Assembly: GCA_965228855.1 (NCBI GenBank) | Contig: CBDDIJ010000005.1 | Location: forward strand, 320,001 to 384,000 | Length of the DNA: 64,000 bases | Direction: 5' to 3' | From: Candidatus Obscuribacterales bacterium | GTDB taxonomy: Bacteria; Cyanobacteriota; Vampirovibrionia; Obscuribacterales; Obscuribacteraceae | Shown here: one piece after another, positions 6,300 to 63,289 of the stretch | Layout of the letters: the number at the start of each line of letters is the position of its first letter | Numbering within the stretch: position 1 is the first letter of the stretch | The notes under the pieces: model-generated | What the model saw: the letters and a program-made list of their open reading frames with translations, nothing else | The model's database searches: none | Told to the model about the DNA's origin: nothing | Translations under genes and position numbers: made by a program

Positions 6300-7490
6300 T
6301 CATGCAACCACTCGTTTTGGCAGTGCATTTTCGACCTGAATTTGACGGCTGGCGTCCATGATTCGCTCGTATATGTTGCGAACCCGGGCGGCGACGCGCG
6401 GATCTGTGCATGCCAGACCAACCAGATCGAGAACCTCGCGTTCGCGAGCAACGTCACGCGAAGGCACCTTGAGCTCTTGCTTGAGCTCACCTGCACGCAT
6501 AGCGAGCATCAGACGCTCTTCCAGCAAAGCGGCAATGCTCGTGTCGGTTTTGTCAATTTCGCGACGAATATCTTTGAGTTCAGCGACCAAAGTTTCATAA
6601 CCCGTCAGTTTGTGCGACTCTTTGATCTCAGCTTGAGGCTCGTCCACGCCCTTAACTAGAGTCGGATTGCAAATGGTTCTTCCCACCGCCGCTGCAATTG
6701 GTTCGATGCTTCGAATGATTTCAATCATGTCATCCATGTGAATCGCCTGACGTGCGTCGGAAACAGACTTTTCCGGCTCAGGATGGCATTCGATCATCAA
6801 ACCATCAGCGCCGCACGCAATTGCCGCGCGAGCGAGGTCGGCGACCAGCTCTCGGCGTCCACAAGCGTGCGAAGGATCAACCAGAATCGGCAAGTGGGTC
6901 ATTTGCCGAAGGGCTACGACACCGCCGAGGTCAAGCACATTTCTCGTCGCATTATCGTAGCTTCTGATACCGCGCTCGCAAAGAATGACCTGATCGTTGC
7001 CGCCTGCGAGTATGTACTCAGCCGCGTTCACCAGTTCCTCCAGGGTTGCTGATAGCCCACGTTTGAGAATTACGGGCTTACGAAGCGTTCCGATGTGCTT
7101 CAAAAGTTCGAAGTTCTGCATGTTTCGGCTGCCGATCTGCAAAACATCGGCTGTGTGAACGGCGATATCAGCTTGCTTTTCGGACATTACTTCTGTGATA
7201 ACAGGCATACCGTACTTCTTCGAGGTGTCGGAAAGGATTTGCAGTCCTTCTTCTCCTAGTCCCTGGAAAGCGTAGGGCGAAGTGCGTGGCTTGTAGACAC
7301 CACCGCGCAGGGCGCTTACGCCTTGACCACGCAGCGCCGCGCCCACCTGGTCCATTTGCTCCTTCGACTCGACAGAGCACGGTCCGGCAACTATTAATAA
7401 GCTTCTTCCGCCACAGGTGACACCATCGGCGATCTCAACCACAGTGCGTTTTTGGGTTTCGGTAATGCTTGCTTTCAGATTCGTAGACAT
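6300..7490 (-). CDS. aroF: DAHP synthase (type I-beta) fused to a C-terminal AroQ chorismate mutase
   Basis: Motifs AGPCSVES, KPRTSPY, LCERGIR and DPSHA; C-terminal LKDIRREIDKTD..LLEER..RDVARE; AAGGA RBS before ATG 7490. Confidence 0.92.
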   Translation of the reverse strand: MSTNLKASITETQKRTVVEIADGVTCGGRSLLIVAGPCSVESKEQMDQVGAALRGQGVSALRGGVYKPRTSPYAFQGLGEEGLQILSDTSKKYGMPVITEVMSEKQADIAVHTADVLQIGSRNMQNFELLKHIGTLRKPVILKRGLSATLEELVNAAEYILAGGNDQVILCERGIRSYDNATRNVLDLGGVVALRQMTHLPILVDPSHACGRRELVADLARAAIACGADGLMIECHPEPEKSVSDARQAIHMDDMIEIIRSIEPIAAAVGRTICNPTLVKGVDEPQAEIKESHKLTGYETLVAELKDIRREIDKTDTSIAALLEERLMLAMRAGELKQELKVPSRDVAREREVLDLVGLACTDPRVAARVRNIYERIMDASRQIQVENALPKRVVA

Positions 7491-7513
7491 TGTTTTGGTT
7501 CCTTGTGAGAGTG

Positions 7514-7548
7514 AAAAAAAAGACCGACTCCGTTGCCCCGGGTCGGTC
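7514..7548 (-). terminator. Attenuator terminator 2 (proximal to aroF)
   Basis: GACCGACCCG-GGGCAA-CGGAGTCGGTC followed by T8. Confidence 0.88.
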
Positions 7549-7576
7549 ATCTAGGTCGCGTCAACGCTTCCTGGAC

Positions 7577-7627
7577 TTACCGCCCGGGGACTCTAAACGC
7601 AAAAAACCAAAAACCTTTATTACTCAT
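7577..7627 (-). CDS. Phe/Trp leader peptide 2, MSNKGFWFFAFRVPGR
   Basis: AAGGA RBS; 4 Phe and 1 Trp codons clustered; 3' end complementary to the 5' arm of terminator 2. Confidence 0.85.
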   Translation of the reverse strand: MSNKGFWFFAFRVPGR

Positions 7628-7653
7628 GACTCAATTCCTTTACTCGTGTTCTG

Positions 7654-7689
7654 AAACAAAAAGACCGCCTGCTTGTTTTGCATGCGGTC
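7654..7689 (-). terminator. Attenuator terminator 1
   Basis: GACCGCATGC-AAAACAA-GCAGGCGGTC followed by TTTTTGTTT. Confidence 0.82.
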
Positions 7690-7717
7690 CACCTCGGGTA
7701 ATCATCGTGAATCTAAC

Positions 7718-7777
7718 TCACCCCGGGTGAACCTCGCTAAACCAGAAAAATCCAAAATTGCGCATCGTTTTGCTCAT
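7718..7777 (-). CDS. Phe/Trp leader peptide 1, MSKTMRNFGFFWFSEVHPG (alternative start ATG 7765)
   Basis: 4 Phe and 1 Trp codons clustered; followed by antiterminator pairing and terminator 1. Confidence 0.8.
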   Translation of the reverse strand: MSKTMRNFGFFWFSEVHPG

Positions 7778-7815
7778 ATTGGGGCAGCTCGTGCCCGTGC
7801 GTTTCGTATGGAGCA

Positions 7816-7845
7816 ATCCTATGCGAGGTAGGTAAGAGCCGTCAA
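7816..7845 (-). promoter_or_regulatory. Sigma70-type promoter for the leader-aroF transcript
   Basis: TTGACG-N18-TAGGAT about 40 nt upstream of leader 1. Confidence 0.6.
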
Positions 7846-8013
7846 GAGAAATTTGAAGACCTGTATACAATTCCGTAAGAATTCGCAAAAGCGATGTGCA
7901 GTTTAGTCGCAAAAGCAAACAGACCTGGGGGTTTCGGATGTGAAGAATCGCACCGGATCGGCAAATTCGTTCTATATAATAAGAAAGCGTCCCTTCTATT
8001 CATATAAACAGCA

Positions 8014-8490
8014 ATGAACATACTCCTGGCAATCGATGGTTCGACTTTCTCTCATGCCGCTGTGGATGAGGTTCTCAACCGTCCGTGGCAGAGTGACACT
8101 CGGTTCAAAGTGCTAACGGTCGTCGAACCATTCCATCCCGAATACGCAGGTTGGCATGGCAATTACGTGCCCGTCGCCATGGAAGCTCAAAAGGAATTGA
8201 TTGATTCGTCTCAATCTTTAGTGAATCAAATAGCCGCGCAGCTCGGAGAGCGCTTCGCGCCTGAGCAGATTGAGAGCGAGGTAAGAGAGGGTTATATAAA
8301 AGACGTGATCGTAGAGGTGGCCAAAGATTGGCATGCGGACTTGATCATAATGGGATCGCACGGTCGAAAAGGAATAACAAAGTTCTTGCTTGGTAGCGTT
8401 TCCGAAGGAGTGCTGTCAGAGGCACCATGTTCGGTCGAAATCGTCAAAATCAAGACGGAGCAAGAGAAACTCGCCGTTGGAAACGCCTGA
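8014..8490 (+). CDS. Universal stress protein (UspA family)
   Basis: Motifs ILLAIDGS and ADLIIMGSHGRKG..LLGSVSEGV..APCSV. Confidence 0.95.
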   Translation: MNILLAIDGSTFSHAAVDEVLNRPWQSDTRFKVLTVVEPFHPEYAGWHGNYVPVAMEAQKELIDSSQSLVNQIAAQLGERFAPEQIESEVREGYIKDVIVEVAKDWHADLIIMGSHGRKGITKFLLGSVSEGVLSEAPCSVEIVKIKTEQEKLAVGNA

Positions 8491-62188: not shown

Positions 62189-63289
62189 TTAGTTTGAACC
62201 TGGTGTCGCGCACGCTACAACTAGACGCGGCCTAGGCTCACCTTGTTGCCCGGCGACAGCAGCGGCTGTTTCGTCAAGCCCTTTTAGCGACTCAAACAAC
62301 GCCAGCGAATCTGACGAGATTAACGCCAGGTCGTCGGGAGTAATCGCCTGTTCGGCGTCACTGATCGATTGATTCGGCTGGCAATGGGTCTCAATCATCA
62401 GGCCGTCCGCACCACATGCAATGGCAGCCCTGGACATCGAGCGGATCAAACTTCTTTTGCCGGTTGCATGGCTGGGATCAACAATCACCGGCAATCCTGT
62501 CATAGACTTGAGTAGCGGAACCGCGCTCAAATCAAGCGTATTACGCGTGCGAGTCTCGAAAGTTCTAATCCCGCGCTCGCAAAGAACGACCTGATTATTA
62601 CCTGCCAACATGATGTACTCGACGGCGTGGACGAACTCATCTATAGTCGCCGAAAGTCCGCGTTTCAAAAACACGGGCTTGCCGGCTTTCCCAACTTCCT
62701 TCAGCAACTCGTAGTTGTACATATTGCGAGCACCGATCTGGAGCATATCGACATAATCTAATGCGATCTCGATTTGCTCTGCGGACATTACCTCGCTGAC
62801 TACCGGAAGTCCTGTGGCAATACTGGCTTCTCTCAGATAGCTGAGCGCGTCCTGCCCAAGACCTGGAAACTCATAAGGGCTGGTACGCGGTTTGAATGCA
62901 CCGCCTCGCAGCATCGTAGCTCCAGCCGACTTCACTTTCTGCGCGAGGTCCAAAAGCTGTTCGCGACCTTCGACGGAGCAGGGACCAGCCATAATCACAG
63001 GAGGAGCGCCACCACCGATGGTGAGACTGTTCTGCGTTGAGGTGAGATCAACCGTTCTCAACTCATCAGAAAGGGCCAGGGGAGATGTCGGCGCGGTTCT
63101 CATAACTCTCGCCACACCAGGAATTCTGGTGAACTTATGGGTCGGTACCGCCCGCACGTCACTGTGGACGAAAATCAAAACCTGTTTGGAGGACCGCACC
63201 AATTCCGCTTGCATGCCTAGTTGAACGAGCGCGTCGAGAATGTCAGCGCTTGCTTTTTCGTCGAGACGGTCTTCTAGTACGAGAAACAT
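62189..63289 (-). CDS. aroF: Second DAHP synthase (type I-beta) with an N-terminal ACT-like regulatory domain
   Basis: Motifs [23 protein letters not shown] and DPSHATG; ~70-aa N-terminal domain ending IPGVARV. Confidence 0.92.

Follow-up and report, generated by a model that had tools for sequence, protein, structure and literature searches.

The window analyzed here is a stretch of 64,000 nucleotides from a Candidatus Obscuribacterales bacterium, a host that appears to be a non-photosynthetic member of the Cyanobacteriota and whose class we take to be Vampirovibrionia. The minus strand of the window carries aroF (6300-7490), whose 396-aa product joins a type I-beta DAHP synthase to a type II chorismate mutase domain at its C-terminus. 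An earlier reading of the letters alone, the preliminary description, had named the gene a DAHP synthase-chorismate mutase, and this identity was borne out by a TIGR01361 match and by matches to PF00793 (residues 22-258) and PF01817 (residues 308-385). The window protein gave no match to PF18152, the N-terminal ferredoxin-like regulatory domain. A longer 416-aa reading frame from 7550 begins within the second of the terminators described below, and the homologs begin at the position of 7490.

Ahead of aroF on the same strand lie a promoter, a leader, a terminator, a second leader, and a second terminator in series, each of which we located where the preliminary description had placed it. A sequence scan identified the sigma-70-type promoter TTGACG-N18-TAGGAT at 7816-7845, a motif that is unremarkable by itself (6 sites found against 3.0 expected). 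A small GC hairpin (7782-7796, -7.7 kcal/mol) lies close to where the transcript is predicted to begin, and hairpins resembling it are visible by eye in several homologs. Translation and homolog comparison delimited leader 1, MRNFGFFWFSEVHPG, at 7718-7765 with an alternative start at 7777, and its regulatory codons lie at 7756-7739. In antiterminator 1 (7686-7733), the 3' end of leader 1 (7733-7722) pairs with 7698-7686 and occupies the base of the 5' arm of intrinsic terminator 1 (7654-7690), which has a stem at 7690-7662 and a U-rich tail to 7654; both structures were assigned by folding and covariation, and the folded terminator stretch has an energy of -17.1 kcal/mol. The second unit begins with an AAGGA ribosome-binding site (7636-7640), followed by leader 2, MSNKGFWFFAFRVPGR, at 7577-7627 (by translation and homolog comparison), with regulatory codons at 7612-7595. 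Antiterminator 2 (7536-7589, fold of -34.4 kcal/mol) pairs 7589-7579 with 7536-7547 and sequesters almost all of the 5' arm of intrinsic terminator 2 (7514-7548), which by folding consists of a stem at 7548-7522 and a U8 tract at 7521-7514, the folded stretch being -18.4 kcal/mol. The AAGGA ribosome-binding site of aroF is at 7504-7500. The four Phe codons and one Trp codon that had been read in each leader (7777-7718 and 7627-7577) agree with our translations, and folding reproduced the proposed pairings of 7733-7726 with 7686-7693 and of 7589-7579 with 7536-7547. For leader 1, the frame and translation originally proposed from 7777 to 7718 held, and the start at 7777 probably did not. The second ATG, at 7765, is the most probable start and gives 15 codons: in the near-identical locus L002, the first ATG is thrown out of frame by an additional A and only the second stays in frame.

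A simple terminator scan flagged neither terminator 1 nor terminator 2, and an Rfam search of 7300-8100 returned no match to leader, T-box, or riboswitch families at E up to 5. A scan of 7337 upstream regions of the genome, which was not exhaustive in that it missed a paralog tandem and a leuA leader, gave 36 single leader-plus-terminator matches and one double match, the aroF locus.

A search for the enzyme over 104 family genomes found it in 99. The 127 non-redundant loci were oriented, and one with 41 nt upstream was excluded; the remainder comprised 101 close homologs (at least 58% identity, short N-terminus) and 25 distant loci, other families included. Under a strict detector, 65 close loci had two units, 1 had three, 18 had one, and 17 had none, and one of the units at the three-unit locus is probably a chance match. 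Among the 25 distant loci, 24 had no unit, one had a single unit, and none had two; a looser detector gave false single matches at 4 of the 25. The preliminary description had proposed comparing Phe and Trp codons at related aroF-chorismate mutase loci, and aromatic tandems were indeed found at 66 of 101, a lower bound since two aromatic leaders are visible at 9 of 18 inspected one- or zero-unit loci. Counted over the close family loci, at least two units occurred in 57 of 73 genomes and under 24 of 31 genus labels. Loci with a single unit also exist (L018, L037, L120, L125, L126, L177). At L017 (1175-1434) there are two near-identical copies of unit 1 and no unit 2, the other three members of its clade being single-unit, which suggests that the pair was rebuilt by duplication of unit 1. 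Elsewhere, the DAHP synthase copies at L019, L197, L203 (genus g3) and L048 have just one leader, Trp-rich and differently designed, and L202, L205 and L206 (genus g3) have Phe/Tyr tandems without Trp.

In 63 of the 65 two-unit loci leader 1, read from its nearest start, has 15-17 codons, and in 60 no more than 45 nt separate terminator 1 from the start of leader 2. A Shine-Dalgarno word ahead of leader 1 is not clear in the window and occurs in only 17 of the 65, and a Shine-Dalgarno-like word precedes leader 2 in 26. Of the 65 loci, 64 had a match to the promoter pattern TTGAC-N17-19-TAnnnT upstream of leader 1 and none had one between the units; none of 127 coding control windows had a match. 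An internal second promoter serving an independent unit 2 was therefore rejected.

An RNA model of unit 1 (R1) matched 21 of 30 family genomes and found exactly two sites in the window genome, both ahead of DAHP synthases. In 120 genomes from other families of the class it gave two weak matches, each a plain terminator downstream of a gene. Among 75 genomes from other classes of the phylum, 18 had the short enzyme at E below 1e-100; of these 18 loci, 16 had two leaders with hairpins, one had unit 1 only, and one had unit 2 only, and 17 of the 18 scored 70-88 bits against the unit 1 model. Two further, more distant loci from other classes had no leaders. The carriers in other classes would be oxygenic cyanobacteria.

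We then asked how the leader codons are used. The codon test used only the RNA motif of unit 1 as its anchor; this motif was present at 71 of 102 close loci and 0 of 25 distant loci and yielded 60 distinct units. In these 60 sequences, codons -7 to -3 were aromatic in 92, 93, 98, 90, and 78%, and a stop stood at +4 in 59. The 360 unit 1 codons included 125 TTY and no TTR, 127 TAY, and 48 TGG and no TGY; the aromatic frame contained no stops and the other two frames contained 10 and 22. Judged by these counts, the unit 1 region is apparently read as aromatic amino acids, beyond mere U-richness. The reading frame of leader 2 ran for 30-54 codons at 24 tandem loci out of 65, a count in which kin are not independent, and the N-terminal extension of this leader varied in length and sequence.

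If the gates act in series, the amino-acid menus of the two leaders should track each other, because serial gates open only to amino acids in both leaders. The menus of leader 1 and leader 2 agreed in the presence of Trp at 65 of 65 loci, in having at least two Phe at 65 of 65, and in Tyr at 63 of 65. Mapped on a FastTree phylogeny with a weak backbone, and with a Phe cut-off set after inspection of the data, all four Trp changes and all five Phe changes were shared by both leaders; change-matched simulations reached the observed agreement in 0 of 2004 runs for Trp, 0 of 4165 for Phe, and 1 of 4796 for Tyr. Strictly independent pairs numbered only 2-3 (sign test p 0.25-0.5). Copying of sequence between the tracts was rejected as the source of the match, the longest shared run being 7.05 nt against 7.05 nt after synonymous randomisation. 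The matched menus show that the same selection acts on the two leaders, although the match alone leaves multiplication of the two gates unproven. Sensing of Phe and Trp, as originally proposed, fits the codons of the window locus but does not extend to the family, whose menu is Phe, Tyr, and Trp. Within the window genus, Phe/Trp leaders precede one paralog and Tyr-only or Tyr-dominated leaders precede another, and the comparison supports the Phe/Trp-only menu as a likely local specialisation paired with the Tyr-only paralog.

Stem covariation, another comparison that the preliminary description had suggested, was evident in unit 1. In an alignment of 49 sequences chosen by eye from about 70, partly by motif, 94.1% of antiterminator 1 cells and 91.1% of terminator 1 cells were paired, far above slid controls, and in each helix 7 of 11 pairs had changed on both sides. 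The alignment of unit 2 (A2) was too variable for a pair count, and family support for antiterminator 2 is weaker than that for the unit 1 helix. Median unit 2 duplex energies were -15.2 with the locus's own partner, -14.7 with partners from other loci, and -10.7 with shuffled sequence, and the own partner beat the row mean in 41 of 56 loci. Leader 1 showed no sign of pairing with terminator 2, the median of -11.2 being at the shuffled level.

The two units differ in architecture, antiterminator 1 taking about four basal terminator pairs and antiterminator 2 most of the arm. Mean terminator pair probability was uninformative for unit 1 switching, in which only the basal pairs are contested, and a sequestration measure was noisy for this unit, its shuffled control matching the real leader (median 0.56 versus 0.57). 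We replaced it with the cost of closing the four basal pairs, calculated by equilibrium folding with the whole terminator made. With a ribosome on the first aromatic codon, the median closing cost was 0.65 kcal/mol for unit 1 and 0.28 kcal/mol for unit 2; with the ribosome at the stop, it was 0.04 and 0.05 kcal/mol. The difference between stalled and stop positions exceeded 0.5 in 36 of 66 loci for unit 1 and 21 of 66 for unit 2, and compared with shuffled sequence the cost was higher, though by little, at 62 of 66 loci for unit 1 and higher at 38 of 66 for unit 2. Under this model, the antiterminators compete only weakly with the terminators at equilibrium. In the window, antiterminator 2 is the minimum-energy fold at every nascent length tested, and the full-length unit 1 regains its terminator in the minimum-energy fold. 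Folding of each unit, also suggested at the outset, thus predicted both of the alternative structures per unit, but the equilibrium competition between them was small. Because the unit 1 terminator re-forms at full length, the switch would need kinetic trapping, and given the small equilibrium effects the antiterminator would have to fold first, while the 3' arm of the terminator is still in the polymerase. An antiterminator winning by earlier folding is standard for attenuators. Ribosome-free folds resembled the stalled state, and unsystematic inspection noticed no conserved 1:2 protector helix.

The aroF tandem is real and conserved and, on this comparative evidence, very probably functional. 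We consider it highly likely that it consists of two classical ribosome-operated attenuators in series that multiply aroF repression; two leader-peptide attenuators in series had been the central proposal of the preliminary description, and conservation, codon selection, and unit 1 covariation back it. A single promoter would produce one transcript that meets two gates in succession, at each of which a ribosome would translate a short leader. When charged tRNA-Phe and tRNA-Trp are ample, the ribosome would reach the stop and mask the 3' end of the leader, and with this end masked the terminator would fold and most polymerases would halt. When these tRNAs are scarce, the ribosome would stall on the aromatic codons, leaving the 3' end of the leader free to pair with the emerging 5' arm of the terminator, and the polymerase would continue. 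Because the transcript must pass both gates, read-through would approximate the product of the two, so that the leak is squared and the range widened, and only amino acids common to both leaders could open aroF. The arrangement had been expected either to multiply repression or to sharpen the response. In a toy series model, the range rose from 9-fold with one gate to 80-fold with two, but steepness hardly gained, with an apparent Hill slope of 1.0 versus 1.13.

Other readings of the region were weighed against this one. Only one gate might regulate, with unit 1 acting mostly as a constitutive terminator or dampener, or with unit 2 being dispensable. The weak equilibrium competition, the hold of antiterminator 1 on only about four basal pairs, the existence of single-unit loci, and the rarity of a Shine-Dalgarno word before leader 1 (not clear here, and present in only 17 of 65) would all fit such an arrangement, which we nonetheless consider unlikely given the compensatory change in antiterminator 1, the aromatic codons kept in both leaders with menus that change jointly, and the doubled unit 1 of L017 in an otherwise single-unit clade. 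It is quite unlikely that the leaders act as peptides, whether as TnaC-like tunnel sensors of aromatics or intermediates or as trans-acting small hydrophobic proteins. The tails EVHLG and RGSPG look conserved and the cores are hydrophobic, and leader 2 reaches 30-54 codons in 24 of 65 loci, but the tail appears to be fixed at the RNA level: 48 of the 49 sequences (a set partly chosen by motif) have T as the third base of its Val codon, and His and Arg alternate through G-U and G-C pairs. Phe, Tyr, and Trp are moreover freely interchangeable, and the N-terminal extension of leader 2 is variable. For the trpL peptide of Sinorhizobium, trans-acting roles have been reported, according to the accessible part of the source (PMC7298713).

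That the region is a T-box-like element or a metabolite riboswitch in which the small ORFs are incidental seems very improbable. At its 5' arm, terminator 1 has GGUGGACCGC, which superficially resembles the bulge of the T-box antiterminator, as judged against what we take to be the T-box consensus. This identity was rejected on the lack of an Rfam match at E up to 5, on the variability of UGG, whose second G is replaced by A in 22 of 49 homologs in a word that pairs with the leader, and on codon selection confined to one reading frame. Chance, by which U-rich stretches would merely read as Phe codons beside ordinary hairpins, does account for false matches, including most of the 36 single matches of the genome scan and those at 4 of 25 distant loci; as an explanation of the tandem it is scarcely credible, being refuted by conservation, unit 1 covariation, and the codon counts. 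Two ribosome-operated attenuators in series thus remain the reading that we adopt.

Serial gates of other kinds are known. Tandem T-boxes are serial termination gates, and synthetic tandem attenuators, presumably of the pT181 type, have been built. An attenuator at aroR-aroF of Corynebacterium glutamicum was reportedly described by Neshat et al. in 2014. In the accessible parts of the sources, the C. glutamicum system has a Phe-Tyr-Phe leader before its DAHP synthase gene and works by ribosome stalling (PMC11802643; leader PMC4046766). It is the closest likeness to each single unit, having the same kind of aromatic-codon leader ahead of a DAHP synthase gene, but in this actinobacterium, as far as these texts go, there is one leader with three codons, whereas the aroF tandem has two full units with 4-6 aromatic codons each, Trp among them in most. 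The trpL, pheL, and hisL attenuators likewise combine a short ORF of cognate codons with an antiterminator opposed to an intrinsic terminator (PMC11802643, PMC3641672, PMC1262725, each in its accessible part), and of the features of this class we found clustered end-product codons, an intrinsic terminator between leader and gene as a predicted hairpin and U tract in both units, and a mutually exclusive antiterminator, with covariation, in unit 1. The overlap at the base of the unit 1 terminator, GGU / ACC / GGU, parallels the complementary triples of the trp attenuator as given in the available text (PMC1262725). The aroF tandem differs from these systems, so far as they are described there, in being doubled, in its mixed Phe/Tyr/Trp menu, and in having no clear 1:2 helix and no Rfam match.

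The preliminary description knew of no tandem ribosome-dependent attenuator, which proved too strong a statement: two are present in Salmonella mgtCBR (PMC3641672), and a double lock is described for mefA-msrD (10.1101/2021.11.29.470318). Judging by the accessible text of these two sources, neither is a pair of adjacent same-signal amino-acid attenuators with intrinsic terminators. The mgtCBR leader has two short ORFs, mgtM and mgtP, each steering alternative stem-loops, but these respond additively to two different signals, ATP and proline, through stem-loops unlike intrinsic terminators (PMC3641672); the aroF tandem, with one signal class and two predicted intrinsic terminators, falls outside that type as described in this text. 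In mefAL/msrDL, two ribosome-dependent attenuators also share a signal and are proposed to suppress basal expression (10.1101/2021.11.29.470318), but in the part of the report available the stalling is that of a nascent chain induced by macrolide and the units lie a whole gene apart. Tandem riboswitches (Bacillus clausii metE, PMC3641672) and the synthetic attenuators (10.1101/003335) are independent termination gates in series too; in these and in T-boxes, on the accessible descriptions, the RNA itself senses ligand, antisense RNA, or tRNA, whereas here the translating ribosome would do so. The aromatic supraoperon of Streptococcus pneumoniae has two predicted attenuator units whose type the available text leaves unstated (PMC1173090). 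The aroF tandem was not described in the accessible parts of PMC1262725, PMC1173090, PMC13613805, or 10.1101/003335, nor in a literature search whose reach left out most subscription papers and supplements, and genome-wide attenuator or Ribo-seq tables could already list it. The mechanism proposed for each gate is textbook.

The window genome encodes further DAHP synthases. The second (L233 / L031; G000:C3, approximately 413600-413950, minus strand) has its own tandem, with the Tyr-only leaders MTRKYYYYHNDEVHQM and MSQQRTYYYYQSRTLRGSPR, and is followed by a separate chorismate mutase gene confirmed by Pfam. The third, at 62189-63289 on the minus strand of the window, has a weak match to the ferredoxin-like regulatory domain and no leader. 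A prephenate dehydratase-like gene on the plus strand (1826-2767) lies about 3.5 kb off, within an operon, with no leader or terminator ahead of it. Across the loci, the largest cluster of downstream genes (59 proteins) resembles a separate chorismate mutase, and no downstream tyrA/pheA linkage was seen that would explain Tyr-only or Phe-only menus. PF18152 was matched in 10 of 11 long homologs without attenuators, mostly below the curated cut-off, and in none of 12 short ones. No credible attenuator was seen in one clade of 11 short enzymes, whose four tested members also lack PF18152; therefore, loss of the domain does not require the cassette. Tight control of transcription would suit an enzyme without the usual allosteric domain, and we infer that aroF encodes a starvation isozyme that is without the ferredoxin-like feedback site and needs a firm off state. 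The attenuator-less clade of short enzymes speaks against this as a general rule, and feedback may also come from the fused chorismate mutase domain, as in other DAHP synthase-chorismate mutase fusions.

Single cognate leaders precede hisG (L223), trpE (L230), ilvD (L225), and leuA (L236) in the same genome (G000:C3 1552775, 2451609, 3643179, and 3641020), with six His codons, Trp, Ile/Val/Leu, and Leu codons, respectively. Terminator-like hairpins were found by the detector at hisG, trpE, and ilvD and by eye at leuA, and the trpE terminator has a AACCGCAG...CTGCGGTT design in common with unit 1. Among the his, trp, ilv, leu, and DAHP synthase leaders, only those of the two DAHP synthases are doubled. 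Upstream of 1628227 (L224; G000:C2, minus strand), a leader with five consecutive Asn codons, an antiterminator, and a terminator precedes the gene for a non-discriminating aspartate-tRNA(Asn) ligase and is a candidate Asn-tRNA-sensing attenuator; a similar Asn/Asp leader occurs at L263 (G019:C7). At L269 (2650-3060, minus strand; G023:C20), the full cassette and promoter stand before DIT1/PvcA-family and TauD-family genes, with no DAHP synthase. This gene pair is tyrosine isonitrile synthase-like, making L269 one case of transfer of the cassette to another operon. Both of its leaders are Tyr-rich, with Cys where relatives have Trp, and the arrangement would put a Tyr-consuming pair under induction by Tyr shortage.

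In a broader reading, which we offer tentatively and with slightly more doubt than belief, the cassette would be a two-gate ribosome sensor that is portable and has spread through photosynthetic as well as non-photosynthetic Cyanobacteriota; its two gates, though built differently, would stay tuned to the same amino acids because of their action as an AND gate, and the sensor would replace the missing feedback domain by control of transcription, with retuning of leader codons splitting the paralogs into Phe/Trp- and Tyr-controlled isozymes. In E. coli the AroG/AroH/AroF isozymes are split by their allosteric sites; under the portable-sensor reading the split would here be made by leader codons. 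The tandem places classical leader-peptide attenuation in a lineage for which our literature search found no report of it. As a natural tandem responding to one signal, it offers a direct test bed for the product rule of serial gates, and codon menus that change together are a rare comparative signature of AND logic. The cassette could also be used to sense the supply of aromatic amino acids with low leak.
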